Notes under the pieces: generated by a model
The model's database searches: none
Told to the model about the DNA's origin: nothing
The model's input: only the letters and a program-made list of their open reading frames with translations
Part shown: positions 1 to 7,430 of the stretch, in pieces
Layout: the number at the start of each line of letters is the position of its first letter
Position numbering within the stretch: position 1 is the first letter of the stretch
NCBI RefSeq assembly: GCF_000621645.1
Contig: NZ_JHXR01000016.1
Coordinates: 1 to 32,000, forward strand
DNA: 32,000 bases
Direction of reading: 5' to 3'
From: Vibrio cholerae ATCC 14035
Lineage (GTDB): Bacteria > Pseudomonadota > Gammaproteobacteria > Enterobacterales > Vibrionaceae
Position numbers and translations under genes: made by a program

Positions 1-1027
1 TGTGTGATTCATAGAGATGGTTTCAATTTTCTTAGCTGAAGATCGAGCTTGTAATTTTGCTCTTGAAACCGCTCTTTCTTGATCTGGTAGTTCTGAGATA
101 CCTCTTCAGACAAAGGAGTTTGATCAGATATCTCAGTAATCCTGTCTATCGGGGTTAGCCCATTTAACGAGCTGTGGGGCCGTTCCCAGTTGTAGTAGTG
201 TTGCCATTCAGCTAGTAGCAGATCCAGTTCTTGCAGCCCCACAGAGACATCTATGGTCGGATAGAACTCACTTTTATCTGTTTTCTGCGAGCGTTCCACT
301 TTGCCATTCAAGTGAGGTGAGCCAGGCTTATTTGGGCGAAACTTGATCCCATAAATCATGAGTTGTTTCTGGACTTTTTCAGCAAAGAATTCACGCCCTC
401 TGTCCGTCTGAATACGCTGGATAGGAAATGGCATCTCTTCCACGACACAATCGATAAAGTCGACTGTATTTGCTGCTGTGCGCCGAGAGTAGCACCTTAG
501 AACCCGATAGCGAGAGCAATCATCAATAGCTGTATACTGGTAAATTCCAGGCGCTATTTTACACGTGTCCATCTGGACTCTATCACCAGGAATTGGGCGC
601 TCATATCTTTGGAAATCTTTTTTGCGTCGGTAAGTTACGATGGGTTTGACTGATGCTTCGGATAAAACTTTATGGAGTGTCGCTGTGCTTAGGTGTATTT
701 TGTGAAGTCGGATTAATTCCGTTTGTAAACGTCGCGCCCCTAAATTGCGTTTGTCACGCATCGTAAGGATCAATGCTCTTAGCTCATCAGTGAGTTTGGT
801 ATCTGGAGATGAATGAGGGCGTCTGCTCTGGCTTTCCAGACCAGCGATTCCACATTGCTTATATCGCTTAGCCCACTTTCGTAATGTTGGTCTGGAAATA
901 CCACAGCGTCGACATACGAGGCCTGCATCACCACATTCCTCATACATTTTTACCCACTGTAGTCTTTGTTGGATTTCTCTGTCCATAGACACCCAGTATA
1001 GTTGAAAGGATGTCTATGAATCACACA
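1..1027 (-). mobile_element. Complete IS481-family insertion sequence (one transposase gene, 15-bp perfect terminal inverted repeats)
   Basis: TGTGTGATTCATAGA at 1-15 is the exact reverse complement of TCTATGAATCACACA at 1013-1027. The repeats bracket a single 327-aa DDE transposase ORF. The left flank and any target-site duplication lie outside the window. Confidence 0.85.
9..992 (-). CDS. IS481-family DDE transposase (integrase/rve catalytic core)
   Basis: 327-aa ORF with an N-terminal HTH-like region (CGISRPTLRKWAKRY). Catalytic-core signatures are VQMDTCKI, IQTDRGREF and NGKVERSQ (D, D, E), followed by W..YYN.ERPHSSL. It lies between the inverted repeats. Confidence 0.88.
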   Translation of the reverse strand: MSMDREIQQRLQWVKMYEECGDAGLVCRRCGISRPTLRKWAKRYKQCGIAGLESQSRRPHSSPDTKLTDELRALILTMRDKRNLGARRLQTELIRLHKIHLSTATLHKVLSEASVKPIVTYRRKKDFQRYERPIPGDRVQMDTCKIAPGIYQYTAIDDCSRYRVLRCYSRRTAANTVDFIDCVVEEMPFPIQRIQTDRGREFFAEKVQKQLMIYGIKFRPNKPGSPHLNGKVERSQKTDKSEFYPTIDVSVGLQELDLLLAEWQHYYNWERPHSSLNGLTPIDRITEISDQTPLSEEVSQNYQIKKERFQEQNYKLDLQLRKLKPSL

Positions 1028-1567: not shown

Positions 1568-1589
1568 TTGATAAGTAGAGGTGTTGTCG

Positions 1590-2951
1590 ATGGAAGAGCT
1601 AACCGTACAAGCTTTTATCAGAGGTGAATGGATAGATATTGGTATCATCTCATTCCCTAAAAGTAGCCAACATAATTTTCGAGTGACTGAACTCAACTAC
1701 CTCAGCGACTATGCGCTAGAACATTACGATAAAGATGACTTTCACGCTGTTTCACTAAACCACCCTGTCTCATTCATTTTTGATGACATGGGTAAGCCTG
1801 GATGGTTAAAGTTTCTAGACGATATTATGCCTAGTGGCGCTAGTAGACGATACTGGGTCAAACACCTAGATATTGAAGATCTTAGTTCTGATGAACAAGA
1901 CTATGTTTTGCTCAAATTTGGCACGATGTCGCCTATTGGTAACTTAAGAATAAAAGACTCCCTTCCTGAACGCTACGAAGTCGCAGACAACCTCTACTTC
2001 TCTGTTGATGATGTTAAAAATCGAGCAGGTGATTTCCTCGACTATGCACAGCAAAGAGGGGCAGCCGCAGGTGGTGCAACAGGGGCTGGAGGTGAAGCGC
2101 CAAAACTGATCCTCCGATGTGGTTTCGATCATGGATCTGGCAGCGAAAAAATATGGATTGATCCATACCAAGATGACAATAGCAGCCACGACTTACATTA
2201 CTTAGTAAAGTACCCTAGAGGCTCAAGAAGCACCATCGACTGTAATATTCTAAGAGCTGAGTTCTACTTCTACCACGAGCTAACTGAAATGGGAGTTGAA
2301 ACGATCTCCACCGACGGTATGCGCTTGGAGGAAGGATTAAACTACCCTTCCTTATGGCTTCCTCGATTTGATGTTCAAATTATTGATCAACAAATAGAGC
2401 GATTTGGCATGGAATCAGTGTATTCCATTTTGAACAAAGGCGCTGGAGTCACTCTTGATCACGAAACAACAATCCGAACTCTCATAGAAAAAATTACTGA
2501 AAGTAATATGGTTAAACACCAAGGGTATAGGTTTGATACCCAAGCTTTCGTTATTGAATGGGTGAAGAGAGATCTACTCAACATCTTGTTTGGTAATAGT
2601 GATAACCATGGCAGAAATACTTCATTCTTAAAGGGTGATGGAGTCATAAAGCTTGCTCCCATTTACGATTTCGCACCAATGAAAGCCGATCCTGCAGGAA
2701 TTCCAAGAACAACAAAATGGAAAGCCCCACTAGAGGTTGGCGGAACTTACGACTTTGTCGGCATTGCAGACACCTTATCTGATCTGGTGCCAAAGGAAAT
2801 GTTATTAAAAGAGCTAGCAATTACTGCAAGTAAATGCGTAGGCCTAAAGCAGAGACTCGCTTTACGAGGAGTACCAGAACAAATCTTGGAGATGCCGGCC
2901 GTTGGACTTAATTATTTATCAGAAAAGCTCACTAAATGGGGGCTACTATGA
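1590..2951 (+). CDS. HipA-family serine/threonine kinase (type II toxin-like)
   Basis: The catalytic loop GNSDNHGRNTSF (nt 2592-2627) and Mg-binding IYDFAP are HipA signatures. A Gly-rich GGATGAGGEAPK loop lies upstream. I prefer the ATG at 1590 (AGAGG 9 nt upstream) over the GTG at 1581 used by the ORF track. Confidence 0.82.
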   Translation: MEELTVQAFIRGEWIDIGIISFPKSSQHNFRVTELNYLSDYALEHYDKDDFHAVSLNHPVSFIFDDMGKPGWLKFLDDIMPSGASRRYWVKHLDIEDLSSDEQDYVLLKFGTMSPIGNLRIKDSLPERYEVADNLYFSVDDVKNRAGDFLDYAQQRGAAAGGATGAGGEAPKLILRCGFDHGSGSEKIWIDPYQDDNSSHDLHYLVKYPRGSRSTIDCNILRAEFYFYHELTEMGVETISTDGMRLEEGLNYPSLWLPRFDVQIIDQQIERFGMESVYSILNKGAGVTLDHETTIRTLIEKITESNMVKHQGYRFDTQAFVIEWVKRDLLNILFGNSDNHGRNTSFLKGDGVIKLAPIYDFAPMKADPAGIPRTTKWKAPLEVGGTYDFVGIADTLSDLVPKEMLLKELAITASKCVGLKQRLALRGVPEQILEMPAVGLNYLSEKLTKWGLL

Positions 2952-3415
2952 AGCCAAGCAATAAAGAGTCCGTACAAGATACGGTAGCTCGTCTAAGAGA
3001 AAACCGAAATCAACAGCAGTCCAAGGTTGGGAAGAATGCAACTCATTCGAGCAAAGAGCAAACACCACTCGATACTCCAACGAGATCGAAAGCCTCAAAA
3101 AACGCCAAAGCAGTAAGTGCAGCAGAGCGCAAAACCGAGGCAAACAAAATCATCAAACACTTATTGCTTGGAGAGCTAACACAGGGCCAAGCGCTGAAAA
3201 GTCTACGCATTAATATACTGGGACTCAAACAGGATGTATTCGCAAGACTTGTCGATGTCTCAAGAAAAACACTCTCAGACATAGAGAATGATCGGGGCAG
3301 CTACAATACAGAGATTCTCAACAAGGTATTCAAACCATTTAGCTTAAAAATCGGGCTGCTGCCTTCTTCCCCCGATGCGTTAAAATCGCTCTTAATGGAT
3401 GGTGAGGATGGGTAA
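2948..3415 (+). CDS. XRE-family helix-turn-helix protein (putative HipB-like partner) with a long low-complexity N-terminus
   Basis: C-terminal HTH: LTQGQALKSLRINILGLKQDVFARLVDVSRKTLSDIENDRGS. The ATG at 2948 overlaps the kinase TGA stop (ATGA, 2948-2951), implying translational coupling. The ORF track starts 12 nt earlier, at 2936. Confidence 0.75.
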   Translation: MKPSNKESVQDTVARLRENRNQQQSKVGKNATHSSKEQTPLDTPTRSKASKNAKAVSAAERKTEANKIIKHLLLGELTQGQALKSLRINILGLKQDVFARLVDVSRKTLSDIENDRGSYNTEILNKVFKPFSLKIGLLPSSPDALKSLLMDGEDG

Positions 3416-3842: not shown

Positions 3843-4421
3843 ATGTCTGTAGAATTTTACAATCAAAATGCACAGCAGTTTTTCTCTTCCACTGTCGAAG
3901 TCGATTCCACTTCCCTACTTGACCAGTTTGTACCTTACTTACCTCAAGGTGGATTAGTGTTAGATGCAGGGTGCGGCTCAGGACGAGATAGTAAACGATT
4001 TCTAGATATGGGCTATCAGATCGATGCTTTTGATGCCAGTGCACCTTTAGCGGCTTTGGCTGAAGAACTACTCAATCAATCTGTCACTGTGACTACCTTC
4101 GAGAACTTTACCTCTAGTAAACGCTATGACGGAATTTGGGCTTGTGCTTCCCTACTGCATGTCACGAGAGAATCGTTACCGGAGACGTTTGCTCACTTAG
4201 CAAAAATGCTCAAGTGTGGCGGTGCTTTTTACTGCTCATTTAAATATGGTCAGGACGAGGTAGAGAGAGATGGGCGTCGCTTCACCAACTGTAATGAAGT
4301 CCTTTTAAATCAATTACTCACCTCTTCACCGCTAGCCATCGACAAGCTTTGGGTGACACAAGATCTCAGAGCAGGGCGTGAACATGAACAATGGCTCAAT
4401 GCCATATTAATTAAGCGTTAA
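3843..4421 (+). CDS. Class I SAM-dependent methyltransferase (small-molecule type fold)
   Basis: Motif I VLDAGCGSGRDS followed by the acidic-loop FDAS. It is a compact 192-aa Methyltransf_11/23-like layout. AGGAGG lies at 3825-3830. No DPPY/NPPY or PC/ENV DNA-methyltransferase motifs were seen. Confidence 0.8.
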   Translation: MSVEFYNQNAQQFFSSTVEVDSTSLLDQFVPYLPQGGLVLDAGCGSGRDSKRFLDMGYQIDAFDASAPLAALAEELLNQSVTVTTFENFTSSKRYDGIWACASLLHVTRESLPETFAHLAKMLKCGGAFYCSFKYGQDEVERDGRRFTNCNEVLLNQLLTSSPLAIDKLWVTQDLRAGREHEQWLNAILIKR

Positions 4422-4424
4422 GTG

Positions 4425-7361
4425 ATGAGTGATAGACAAAGTTTTCTGTATTCAGGTCATAAGCTCTCTTCTGGTGGTGCAAACGATCCGCTCCTACCAA
4501 GACTTGTCCAAGCCATTAATCACGCGACTGAAATTGAAATTTCAGTCTCATTCATTCAGCCATCCGGTCTGGATTTACTGTTTGATCCTCTGTTTGATGC
4601 TGTGCAAAGTGGTGCTCAGGTAAAACTCCTAACATCAGATTATCTCTCGATTACTCATCCTGTTGCGCTGCGACGCCTAATGTTGCTAACAGAACGCGGC
4701 GCTCAGTGTCGTGTATTTGAATGTGGTCAGCACAGCTTTCATATGAAATCGTACATTTTTGTCCGATGTGAACAGGGAGAAATACTTGAAGGTTGCGCTT
4801 GGATTGGTTCCAACAACATCAGCAAAACAGCGTTATTAGACAGCCATGAATGGGCTCTACGTCACGACTTTGAACCACCTGAAACCAGTGCTGCTGCCCT
4901 TGAGTTTCTCCATATTCGTCAACAGTTTGCTTCCATTTTCAACCACACAAATAGTAAAGATTTAACGCATACTTGGATTGATCATTACCTTGAACGCTAT
5001 CAACAAGCGAAAAAGCAGCACGGCATGCCCATACTGGCCGATAGCCAAGATGAACAGTCAGAACCGCCAGCGCCGAATGCAGTTCAAGTAGAGGCGTTAA
5101 CCGCATTGAACGCCACTAGAGCCCAAGGATTTTCTCGTGGATTAGTCGTGCTAGCTACGGGCATGGGCAAAACGTGGTTAGCAGCATTTGATGCTCTACA
5201 AACTCAGTCGACAAAAGTCTTGTTCGTTGCGCATAGAGAAGAAATTCTTCTGCAAGCGGAAAAAACCTTCTGTCAGCTTATTCCCAATGCAAAAACGGGT
5301 CTCTACAACGGTGTAACGCAAAATACACAAGCGATGCTGCTGTTTGCTTCCGTGGCAACCATAGGTAAACAAAATCACCTGCAACGCTTTGCAGCGGATC
5401 ACTTTGATTACATTGTGGTGGATGAATTTCATCACGCGGCAGCGAGAAGTTACCGAAACTTACTCACCTATTTTAAGCCTAAATTTCTCCTCGGCCTAAC
5501 CGCAACACCGGAACGTTCAGATCAAGCGGATATTCTCTCGCTTTGCGACAGTAATTTAGTCTTTGAACGTAACCTTGTTCATGGAATTGATGAGAAAATT
5601 CTGGTTCCTTTTGACTATCACGGTATCTACGACCAAGCCGTGAACTACCAAGAAATCCCATGGCGTAACGGTAAATTCGACCCAGACTCACTCGATAATG
5701 CCCTAGCAACTCAACGCCGTGCCGAACACGTTTACCAGCATTGGCACCAGAAAAAACAAACCCGCACACTGGCTTTTTGTGTTTCTAAAAAACACGCAGA
5801 CTTCATGGCTGAGTTTTGTCTGAGTAAAGGCATAAAAGCGATTGCGGTTTACAGTGATTCAAAGGTTCGACGTAACCAAGCCTTACAGTGGCTAGATTCA
5901 GGAAAAATAGACATCCTTTTCTCCGTCGATCTTTTTAATGAAGGTACCGATCTGCCCGCTATTGATACCATTTTGATGCTTCGTCCAACGGAGTCTAAAA
6001 TTCTCTTTTTACAGCAGTTGGGACGGGGATTGCGTCGAAGCATTGAAACTCAAAAAAGTAAACTGGTTGTTATTGATTTTATTGGTAATCATGACTCGTT
6101 CTTAAATCGTCCAACCACACTCTACAATGTGAGTCATTTAAAAGACGCCTTAGCCAAACACCAACAACAAGCATTACCTGACGGATGCCATGTCACTTTT
6201 GATATCACTTTGCTCAACTTTTGGCAGCAATTAACCCGGAAAATGCGTTTCTCAGTGCAAGATGAGTATCAGCAACTTGCACACCAGCTCGCACATAGAC
6301 CAACTGCTAGTGAGTTTTTCTATCATGGAATTGAAATAAGTAAAGTGCGTAAACAAGCGCAAAGCTGGTTTCATTTGGTTGCGAGCCAAGAAAATGATCC
6401 CGAGTTGGCTGAGATTGTTACACGCTATGGTGATTTTCTTCTGCATGGCATTGAAAGCACCAGCATGAGTAAATCTTTCAAAGCAATTCTACTTGAGGCC
6501 TTACTCGAACTGGATGGATTAAGAACTCCGCCGACCTTAGCCACATTGGCTGAATGCAGTTACACTGTTATCGCACGCAGACCAGACCTCATGGCTGAAG
6601 ACCTAACTGAAAATGCCAAACAATTTAAAGCAGCAGATAAAGATTGGCTTAACTATTGGCGGAACAACCCTATTAAGGCCTTTACGAACAAAGCAACGAA
6701 ACAGGCCACTTGGTTTTCCATCGATAGCCAACAACGCTTCGTCGCTAACTTTGATATCCGAGAGCAAGATCTAGAACGGTTACACGATTGTATACAAGAA
6801 TTGGTTGATCTGCGTTTGGCGGAATATGCTCAGCGACCCAAGCAACATAAAGAAAATCTTATTAAGGCTAAGAGCAAAGCTGCTGTCATTTCATTAATAC
6901 CTGAACAAAAAACGATAGGAACACCTATCCCATTCTATCCAGAGCTCAAAATTGCCTGTGGCCATTTTAAGCGCGGTTCAGAGCGAGAAGTACAGACTTA
7001 TTTTGTTCCTGATGGCTATGGATTACTTGATCCCACACGGCATTTTGTCTCGCCAGCCTCTGGTAACTCAATGAATGGCGGTAAAAATCCTATTCAAGAT
7101 GGTGACTTATTATTGCTTGAGTGGGTGACACCAAGCAGTGCTGGCTCTATATCAAACCTCACCATGGCTATAGAAACTCAAGATGAAACGGGGGATAACC
7201 AGTACTTACTGCGGGTAGTACGTAAAATCGCACCAAACCAGTATGAACTACAAGCACAAAATCCAAGTTATCCAAATATGCCAGCAACCGATGCAATGAA
7301 AACGTTCGCACGGTTAAAAGCTGTGATAAAAAATAATAGTCAGCAATCACAGACTCGATGA
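4425..7361 (+). CDS. Fusion protein: PLD-family (single HKD) nuclease + SF2 DEAD/DEAH-type helicase + uncharacterised middle region + C-terminal UmuD/LexA-like S24 peptidase domain
   Basis: - HKD motif HMKSYIF...GSNNIS (aa 106-134).
- Helicase motifs ATGMGKT (I), VVDEFHH (II), LTATPER (III), FNEGTDLP and QQLGRGLRR (VI).
- C-terminus: PFYPELKIACGHF, ASGNSMNGG, IQDGDLLLL and RVVRK align with the UmuD cleavage site, Ser nucleophile and Lys base.
- The start is ATG 4425 or GTG 4422, directly abutting the methyltransferase TAA stop (4419-4421). Confidence 0.85.
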   Translation: MSDRQSFLYSGHKLSSGGANDPLLPRLVQAINHATEIEISVSFIQPSGLDLLFDPLFDAVQSGAQVKLLTSDYLSITHPVALRRLMLLTERGAQCRVFECGQHSFHMKSYIFVRCEQGEILEGCAWIGSNNISKTALLDSHEWALRHDFEPPETSAAALEFLHIRQQFASIFNHTNSKDLTHTWIDHYLERYQQAKKQHGMPILADSQDEQSEPPAPNAVQVEALTALNATRAQGFSRGLVVLATGMGKTWLAAFDALQTQSTKVLFVAHREEILLQAEKTFCQLIPNAKTGLYNGVTQNTQAMLLFASVATIGKQNHLQRFAADHFDYIVVDEFHHAAARSYRNLLTYFKPKFLLGLTATPERSDQADILSLCDSNLVFERNLVHGIDEKILVPFDYHGIYDQAVNYQEIPWRNGKFDPDSLDNALATQRRAEHVYQHWHQKKQTRTLAFCVSKKHADFMAEFCLSKGIKAIAVYSDSKVRRNQALQWLDSGKIDILFSVDLFNEGTDLPAIDTILMLRPTESKILFLQQLGRGLRRSIETQKSKLVVIDFIGNHDSFLNRPTTLYNVSHLKDALAKHQQQALPDGCHVTFDITLLNFWQQLTRKMRFSVQDEYQQLAHQLAHRPTASEFFYHGIEISKVRKQAQSWFHLVASQENDPELAEIVTRYGDFLLHGIESTSMSKSFKAILLEALLELDGLRTPPTLATLAECSYTVIARRPDLMAEDLTENAKQFKAADKDWLNYWRNNPIKAFTNKATKQATWFSIDSQQRFVANFDIREQDLERLHDCIQELVDLRLAEYAQRPKQHKENLIKAKSKAAVISLIPEQKTIGTPIPFYPELKIACGHFKRGSEREVQTYFVPDGYGLLDPTRHFVSPASGNSMNGGKNPIQDGDLLLLEWVTPSSAGSISNLTMAIETQDETGDNQYLLRVVRKIAPNQYELQAQNPSYPNMPATDAMKTFARLKAVIKNNSQQSQTR

Positions 7362-7430
7362 CGATGAATAAGGCATAATTCAAATATATAAATTTTAAAT
7401 AACAATATGTAAAAAAAAGGCTAGGTAGTT

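Follow-up and report, generated by a model that had tools for sequence, protein, structure and literature searches.

A Vibrio cholerae PLD nuclease/SF2 ATPase with a C-terminal LexA/UmuD-type S24 domain and a linked methyltransferase: a possible RecA-responsive, restriction-like system

Restriction systems of several kinds combine a nuclease with a superfamily 2 (SF2) helicase-like motor. In NgoAVII/CglI and in the Type ISP (LlaGI-like) enzymes, the nuclease, which is of the phospholipase D (PLD) type in NgoAVII/CglI, and the SF2 motor work with a C5 or N6A DNA methyltransferase, and to our knowledge none of these systems has a module of the S24 type, the self-cleaving domain of LexA, UmuD and lambda cI. 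All S24 substrates that we know of, except UmuD, are inactivated by cleavage, and the N-terminal fragment of LexA, which ends in ...VAA, becomes a ClpXP substrate. Proteolysis is also known as a means of lowering restriction, since the damage-induced restriction alleviation of EcoKI proceeds via ClpXP (PMC12707154). Here we describe a gene pair located in the first 32,000 nucleotides of contig NZ_JHXR01000016.1 of Vibrio cholerae ATCC 14035 (the window), in which a methyltransferase gene is followed by a gene encoding a fusion of a PLD nuclease, an SF2 ATPase, a helical middle domain and an S24 domain. The arrangement is read, tentatively, as a restriction-like system with a built-in response to filaments of RecA on single-stranded DNA (ssDNA), referred to as RecA*.

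The C-terminal ~140 aa of the fusion protein are a genuine LexA/UmuD/lambda-cI (S24) fold, far beyond chance. Pfam Peptidase_S24 (PF00717) scored 26.0 bits at aa 842-956, where the curated cut-off is 23.3. A single-sequence phmmer search of the C-terminus against the PDB returned nothing relevant, and a profile built from an alignment of 25 C-terminal domains matched UmuD in the PDB with E = 0.002. In the latter alignment LKIAC-G is placed on LVQC24-G25 and ASGNSM on ASGDS60M, which bears out two assignments of an earlier note made on this DNA from its letters alone, namely that Cys846-Gly847 aligns with the UmuD cleavage site Cys24-Gly25 and Ser883 with the nucleophile. The AlphaFold2 (AF2) model of the last 153 residues presented a predicted local distance difference test score (pLDDT) of 89.8 and a predicted template modelling score (pTM) of 0.84, with the cleavage-site segment packed on the domain (pLDDT 83-90). 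The top 24 Foldseek matches of this model in the PDB were exclusively C-terminal domains of lambda cI, LexA and UmuD (best E = 4.6e-6), and the best of them are structures in which the cleavage-site region is present and docked, namely cI (8gmu) and LexA (8gms), both bound to RecA, and the hyper-cleavable fragments of cI in 2hnf and 2ho0. The earlier note had proposed the S24 fold for this part of the protein, and both the above-threshold Pfam match and the uniform Foldseek result place it there. The S24 subfamily is narrow: among 1.84 billion representative proteins, only 291 match its profile at E <= 1e-3, and ordinary LexA proteins are not among them.

The catalytic positions were compared in a bridging alignment of the query, 44 members of the subfamily that an exhaustive search with its profile had returned, five alternative S24 domains carried by close homologues, and LexA and UmuD of E. 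coli with lambda cI as references; over the UmuD stretch, the reference is consistent with the alignment to the PDB. The canonical lysines LexA K156, UmuD K97 and cI K192 align with Arg931 in YLLR931VVRK935, and Lys935 pairs with LexA K160. Intermediate relatives, which read Y-V/A-L-K-R/K-I-x-K at this place, align to the query without gaps. Lys935 had been taken in the earlier note as the lysine of the dyad (from RVVRK), and the module was hence called apparently intact; this candidate was rejected, as the bridging alignment puts Arg931 at the general-base position. Counted by column over 260 domains, 166 complete sequences had the combination A-C-G / S / R / K. In the clade that carries the arginine (R-type, n=169), Ala845, Cys846, Gly847, Ser883 and Arg931 are each found in 169/169 sequences, at ~50-60% overall identity.

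Other residues change together with the arginine when this clade is compared with the relatives that keep the canonical lysine (K-type, n=36). His848, at P2', is present in 160/169 R-type vs 2/36 K-type domains, and the same figures apply to Lys888 (160/169 vs 2/36), while position 935 is K in 166/169 R-type domains and K15, R13, S5 in the K-type; these co-variation counts come from related sequences and not from independent events. The S24 domain is conserved as well as the enzymatic core (56-66% vs 53-57% identity). The conservation expected by the earlier note among homologues thus holds for the Cys-Gly site and the serine, and does not hold for the lysine of the dyad. The pattern looks unlike that of a decaying pseudo-enzyme, because the nucleophile and both residues of the scissile bond show no variation in sequences that share ~55% identity overall, and we give about even chances to the V. 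cholerae protein cleaving itself at all.

The N-terminal two thirds of the product of the second gene form a SauUSI-related, ATP-driven PLD nuclease/SF2 translocase. Residues 13-663 match residues 30-677 of the SauUSI structure 7clg_A (E = 1e-86), the PADLOC model mREase_IV matches aa 31-591 (2.3e-88), and Pfam recognizes PLDc_2 at aa 27-148 (31.2 bits), ResIII at 217-364 (6.9e-38) and Helicase_C at 435-537 (2e-13). The motifs FHMKSYIF...GSNNIS (4737-4823), ATGMGKT (5154-5174), DEFH (5421-5432) and QQLGRGLRR (6012-6038) all translate at the nucleotides for which they had been quoted, and the H, K, G, S and N of the HKD motif are invariant among 25 homologues. The order PLD, SF2, middle region of ~270 aa and S24 that was described for the polypeptide also holds.

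In the AF2 model the middle domain (aa ~560-812) is helical, with a pLDDT of 89. Its first ~100 aa still align to SauUSI, an HNH_repeat is found by Pfam in 20/26 middle domains, and the PDB matched the domain neither by sequence nor by fold. DUF3427 gave no match at E <= 0.1 in the fusion protein, nor was it among the top-25 families for the 26 middle domains at E <= 1. A DNA-binding-like helical domain stands where SauUSI has its recognition domain, and it is followed by a linker of ~30 unconserved residues. The SauUSI-type layout recognized in the earlier note stands for its PLD and SF2 part; the C-terminal recognition domain of that layout is missing, as DUF3427 is, and the solitary character of a type IV enzyme probably does not apply to a gene with a methyltransferase partner. 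The features are collected in Table 1.

Table 1. Genes, predicted domains and candidate catalytic residues, in positions of the window
Feature	Positions	Strand	Basis
Class-I S-adenosylmethionine (SAM)-dependent methyltransferase, 192 aa, first gene of the unit	3843-4421	+	Pfam Methyltransf_25/23/12/11, TehB
PLD nuclease / SF2 ATPase / helical middle domain / S24 fusion, 979 aa	4422-7361	+	Open reading frame (ORF), Pfam
Single-HKD PLD nuclease domain, His107, Lys109; HKD motif 4740-4823	4503-4868	+	PLDc_2; homology to SauUSI 7clg_A
SF2 helicase-like ATPase (GMGKT, DEFH, QQLGRGLRR)	5073-6038	+	ResIII, Helicase_C
Middle domain, ~250 aa, all-helical with a small hairpin, HNH_repeat-type helix-turn-helix; not DUF3427	6102-6860	+	AF2, Pfam
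Linker, Lys/Ser-rich, poorly conserved, tethers the S24 module	6861-6929	+	aa ~805-835 hold no conserved column
Cleavage-site region PFYPELKIAC-GHFK, putative scissile bond Cys846-Gly847 (6957-6962), His848 at P2'	6930-6971	+	UmuD alignment
S24 (LexA/UmuD/cI-like) beta domain	6948-7295	+	Pfam Peptidase_S24, AF2 + Foldseek
Ser883, equivalent of the nucleophile (LexA S119, UmuD S60)	7068-7070	+	Alignment; 169/169
Lys888, in the SMNGGK loop after the nucleophile, candidate substitute base	7083-7085	+	Co-varies with Arg931
Arg931, at the canonical general-base Lys position (LexA K156, UmuD K97, cI K192)	7212-7214	+	Bridging alignment
Lys935, dyad lysine of the earlier note, four residues past the canonical position	7224-7226	+	Bridging alignment
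NERD-domain gene, 3' neighbour of the nuclease gene	7431-8135	+	Pfam NERD

The methyltransferase gene ends (4421) one base before the GTG of the nuclease gene (4422), its stop abutting the GTG/ATG start. The same two genes, on one strand and abutting or overlapping, are found again in several phyla; Psychromonas, Shewanella, Photobacterium and metagenomic contigs are examples. A locus scan with one genome per species gave at least 584 species loci, distributed over Gamma- and Betaproteobacteria, Geomonas, Acidobacteria, Verrucomicrobia, Cloacimonadota and a metagenome-assembled genome (MAG) of Thermotogaceae. Neighbourhoods were counted in the best 80 of these at least 584 loci: ~70/80 have a methyltransferase homologue immediately upstream in the same orientation, and of the remaining loci three lack upstream sequence and at least two carry a divergent methyltransferase homologue. 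In one relative (P0131) the methyltransferase is fused to the nuclease.

The Pfam matches of the partner are only of the generic class-I / TehB type. Its closest PDB relative is the uncharacterised 3e23_A, followed by TehB, and neither of the DNA-methyltransferase motifs (D/N/S)PP(Y/F) and PC/PCQ occurs in the 192-aa sequence. An N-terminal HIT domain replaces the methyltransferase in P0243 and P0268, and in P0182 a sub-threshold match (E = 0.01) suggests a PRA-PH/MazG-like domain at the methyltransferase position, with no match for P0177. As other fused small-molecule or nucleotide enzymes can take this position, the substrate of the partner may be a nucleotide and not DNA. Strictly linked as it is, a methyltransferase of the small-molecule type, with HIT or a possibly MazG-like domain in its place in some relatives, suggests that the system has a second component which has gone unrecognised.

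Some loci depart from the simple pair. In a MAG (L019, 538-5001), two genes, for a RecQ-like helicase of 699 aa and a protein of 421 aa, are inserted between methyltransferase and nuclease, and in L045 (~4000-4900) the methyltransferase looks split and lies next to transposase-like ORFs. A 9.7-kb human-faecal contig named 'Bacteriophage sp.' (MT836554.1) encodes a 27%-identical PLD-helicase, with a 39%-identical methyltransferase homologue 1.4 kb downstream on the same strand (H23, H25).

The S24 module itself has been exchanged and lost. A nested lineage (P0064, P0084, P0086, P0096, P0105) is 59-60% identical over aa 1-812 and 22-25% over S24, and its S24 presents the textbook set EIAA-GGF, HGHSMEP and FTIKRY behind the same LPFYP lead-in, so that the module has been swapped, in the same place, for a canonical Ser-Lys S24. 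The K-type S24 of the subfamily also ends other PLD-SF2 enzymes (P0168, P0177) and a DEAD+UvrD double helicase (P0201). Module exchange, together with the presence of K-type S24 on other enzymes, therefore indicates that a generic property of S24 is what is selected. In two single chains of ~730 aa (P0174, P0176), the same methyltransferase type is joined to an HNH_4 nuclease and a K-type S24, with no helicase, and the triad of methyltransferase, nuclease and S24 recurs there with a different nuclease.

Loss of the module was found in 11 or 12 of ~78 complete loci, which end at about residue 804-832 (L057 was set aside in this tally, as the contig ends there). The S24-less forms belong to at least five groups with S24-bearing nearest relatives, and one of them has a core 93% identical to that of an R-type enzyme. 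In Photobacterium damselae, the S24-less gene of 804 aa is located behind its methyltransferase on contigs >200 kb, and the 480-bp spacer downstream of it holds no S24 remnant, for which reason the view of S24-less forms as truncated pseudogenes was rejected. The existence of clean variants of this kind indicates that the nuclease/motor evidently functions without S24, and this favours a regulatory role over obligatory dimerisation or recruitment. S24 is, then, an accessory, regulatory add-on outside the catalytic core, and an obligatory form of the dimerisation module that the earlier note gave as an alternative is unlikely in view of the repeated losses.

In a large sister group (P0131, P0134, P0148, P0158, P0221, P0237, P0243, P0244, P0246) the series PLD-SF2-middle-S24 is continued by DUF3427, profile positions ~123-280. 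A Paracoccus plasmid relative that has no S24 matches the same part of DUF3427 only (positions 128-274), so the S24 of the sister group is an insertion between the motor and a SauUSI-type recognition part. The idea that S24 replaced the N-terminal half of DUF3427 was rejected, since the Paracoccus relative shows the partial match to be a property of the Pfam profile.

Cryo-electron microscopy of RecA filaments has shown that the contacts shared by S24 proteins are a hydrophobic pocket (LexA F111, L113, V153; UmuD F94; cI F189) and an acidic hairpin that immediately precedes the catalytic strand (LexA D150-E152; PMC9926225). At the aligned pocket positions the R-type clade has Phe875 (169/169), Ala/Ser877 and Tyr928 (159/169), and the hairpin D921-E922-x-G924-D925 is conserved as D, G and D in 143, 165 and 151 of 169 sequences. 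By homology, the S24 of the fusion protein may be taken as compatible with RecA* binding.

From these comparisons, we tentatively propose that S24 is the RecA*-responsive regulatory module of a methyltransferase-linked, ATP-dependent restriction-like system, in which it would probably act as a damage-triggered off-switch. The module would couple the enzyme to RecA*, and binding would promote intramolecular cleavage at Cys846-Gly847 by Ser883, the role of the base having moved from the canonical lysine (now Arg931) to a re-wired set of His848, Lys888 and Lys935. Cleavage would detach the dimer-forming S24 domain. The most likely consequence would be that restriction goes down during chromosome repair, as a built-in restriction alleviation, and the fragment ending in ...IAC would possibly be degraded afterwards. 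The resemblance of fragments ending in ...IAC, or in ...IAA in the canonical variant, to the ...VAA-ended ClpXP substrate of LexA may be mentioned as only a lead.

The off direction is favoured because the near-universal methyltransferase suggests a constitutive discrimination of self from non-self, because cleavage in the sister group would sever DUF3427 recognition from the nuclease, as in LexA/cI, and because inactivation is the usual outcome for S24 substrates other than UmuD. The damage-induced proteolysis of a restriction motor subunit has, in addition, its precedent in EcoKI/ClpXP. In its widest form, the proposal is that a family of at least 584 species loci is wired to the SOS response by RecA-filament-triggered self-cleavage through Ser883 with Arg931/His848/Lys888, turning restriction off or on, and has an obligatory methyltransferase partner of a non-DNA type; we hold this form, too, at somewhat less than even odds.

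Several observations weigh against the damage-triggered off-switch. The general-base lysine is an arginine throughout the R-type clade (169/169), LexA K156R has been used as an uncleavable, SOS-deficient allele (PMC5760743), and Lys935 would be too far from the canonical site, by ~4 strand positions as estimated from beta-strand geometry, to substitute as the base. Since LexA K156R is not cleaved, 'apparently intact' was too strong a description of the module, and the relatedness of the sequences behind the co-variation takes weight from the re-wired set. A search for the LexA box (CTGT-N8-ACAG, 1 mismatch) gave 7 matches where 10.5 were expected; none of them lay in the promoter region, which leaves the link to SOS without independent support. 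The methyltransferase is, moreover, apparently of the small-molecule type, so that the restriction-modification logic behind the off direction is itself presumptive. The arginine and the uncleavable LexA allele also speak for a pseudo-protease, which we consider rather unlikely: the S24 of the Arg931 clade would no longer cut and would serve as a stable dimerisation and/or RecA-filament docking module, which pairs two single-HKD PLD domains or recruits the enzyme to RecA-coated ssDNA, such as phage replication/recombination intermediates, with the Cys-Gly strand as a docked pseudo-substrate. The conserved equivalents of the RecA contacts agree with this, and so does the established dimerisation of the S24 domains of LexA, UmuD and cI, which are dimers in the matched structures. 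However, an invariant Ser883 and Cys-Gly would be unusual for a dead protease, the nested lineage took a fully canonical Ser-Lys S24 instead, and the gene pair persists after repeated loss of S24, so dimerisation or recruitment by this domain is not essential; nor does SauUSI need a domain of this kind in order to work.

The structural evidence cited for the off-switch (the UmuD profile match, AF2, Foldseek and conservation) fits equally the main idea of the earlier note, in which the intact S24 auto-inhibits the nuclease and RecA*-triggered self-cleavage frees an active nuclease-helicase, in UmuD-to-UmuD' fashion, as a sensor of infection or damage. UmuD is indeed an S24 protein activated by cleavage, and the S24-less variants are compatible with a constitutively active form tolerated through the methyltransferase. 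This activation by cleavage is nevertheless improbable in our judgement: a universally linked methyltransferase would be needless if the nuclease were silent until infection, cleavage in the sister architecture would cut off the DUF3427 recognition part, and Arg931 at the general-base position counts against it as well. Far less probable, and largely refuted, is an ordinary SauUSI-type type IV (modification-dependent) enzyme whose C-terminal domain is part of target recognition. The mREase_IV and 7clg_A matches would suit such an enzyme, but both stop at aa ~591-663, DUF3427 is absent, the C-terminal fold matches only LexA, UmuD and cI, and the methyltransferase accompanies the gene in most of the 80 loci counted.

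As tentatively as for the off-switch, we take the conserved gene pair 3843-4421 and 4422-7361 to be a restriction-like defence unit, carried by an island that was acquired horizontally. The ORF of the nuclease gene extends from GTG 4422 / ATG 4425 to the stop at 7361 (+), and the 979 aa are numbered from 4422. A V. cholerae protein from strain HC-61A2, 99% identical to that of the window, represents a cluster of 720 sequences, and full-length homologues with 52-84% identity are found in Vibrio, Shewanella, Psychromonas, Pseudoalteromonas and others, with five Pfam domains common to most. The system is chromosomal: plasmid or phage carriage was rejected, as full-length plasmid/chromid matches numbered 1 and full-length phage matches 0.

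Positions 1-~9000 of the window are a low-GC island, with 32-46% GC vs ~50% in the citrate-lyase / oxaloacetate-decarboxylase core (9000-32000), whose cit/oad genes it adjoins. The island corresponds, by a segment-level match, to VC_0809-VC_0816 beside VPI-1, a segment still present even in an O139 strain that is non-toxigenic (PMC6458141), and the 32,000-nt window has no tRNA or tmRNA genes. The GC minimum (32%, at 8001-9000) lies around an ORF without family match at 8469-8984 (-), and at the edge of the island there is an IS481-family transposase at 9-992 (-), with 267.8 bits vs a cut-off of 224. A gene for a HipA_C kinase, 1581-2951 (+), overlaps by 16 nt an HTH_3/HipB-like gene, 2936-3415 (+), with the toxin first, the reverse of classical hipBA. 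A SWIM zinc-finger protein of 589 aa, 9176-10945 (-), matches the PADLOC phage-defence candidate PDC-S62 over its full length (E = 7e-266), and it is therefore a second putative defence gene in the same island.

The NERD protein encoded downstream of the nuclease matches PglW (BREX) and MAD6 kinases only over their N-terminal NERD parts. A NERD gene is also downstream in Psychromonas (NERD + Top1 zinc-ribbon gene), and the Photobacterium homologue is preceded by a NERD-UvrD helicase gene. As a third component of the unit, the NERD gene was rejected, being absent downstream in 80 other loci, and the cassette 3843-8380 suggested in the earlier note thus includes a gene that is not conserved.

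The domain combination is visible in automatic annotations, where JGI names homologues 'helicase/HKD family nuclease/SOS-response transcriptional repressor LexA', and so it has not gone unseen, although it remains uncharacterised. Full-text literature searches found no paper describing an S24-bearing restriction or defence nuclease, which agrees with the statement of the earlier note that no characterised enzyme of these kinds is known to have this combination. The terms 'S24', 'LexA' and 'autoproteolysis' are all absent from a 2025 restriction-modification review of 270,000 characters. Matches to 'VC0812' were rejected as typos for VCA0812, and matches to 'S24' in defence papers as supplementary-table numbers.

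Should the S24 module prove to cleave, the enzyme would become the first nuclease in restriction or defence to read RecA* directly, a one-protein solution to sparing the host during DNA repair or to infection sensing, and LexA-type autoproteolysis would reach beyond repressors and UmuD to include an enzyme. The invariant change of lysine to arginine, with a co-varying histidine and lysine, is a natural experiment on the catalytic mechanism of S24. The gene lies beside VPI-1 in pandemic V. cholerae, where it may affect phage and plasmid susceptibility.

Among the known systems, the V. cholerae enzyme is close to SauUSI of Staphylococcus aureus, a type IV enzyme (PDB 7clg) with which it shares the single-HKD PLD, the SF2 ATPase, the homologous start of the helical region and the same domain order. 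It differs in having no DUF3427, another middle domain, a C-terminal S24 and a conserved upstream methyltransferase, whereas type IV enzymes are solitary. The S24-DUF3427 sister group (P0134, P0148, P0158, P0131, P0243) presents the same PLD-SF2-middle-S24 series and the ACGHF site, includes R-type members and has the methyltransferase upstream or fused; its S24, however, is internal, whereas that of the V. cholerae form is the C-terminal end, and some of its members have N-terminal methyltransferase or HIT fusions.

NgoAVII/CglI are approached by weak RE_NgoFVII Pfam matches in several homologues of the V. cholerae enzyme, and Type ISP by P0131, which fuses methyltransferase, nuclease and motor in one chain; unlike the partners in both, the one found here is a TehB/UbiG-like class-I enzyme of 192 aa that lacks DNA-methyltransferase motifs. 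With LexA/UmuD/lambda cI (MEROPS S24) the C-terminal domain shares the fold, the position of the Cys/Ala-Gly site, the G-x-S-M nucleophile, the equivalents of the RecA contacts and a flexible-hinge tether. It departs from them in having Arg931 for the general-base lysine, with the co-varying His848/Lys888/Lys935, and in being attached to an 845-aa nuclease/motor and not to a DNA-binding domain or a polymerase subunit. A functional analogue of the proposed off-switch is the alleviation of EcoKI by ClpXP, in which proteolytic removal of a nuclease/motor subunit after DNA damage protects the chromosome; there the protease is a separate housekeeping enzyme, whereas the V. cholerae system would carry a built-in protease that reads RecA* directly.

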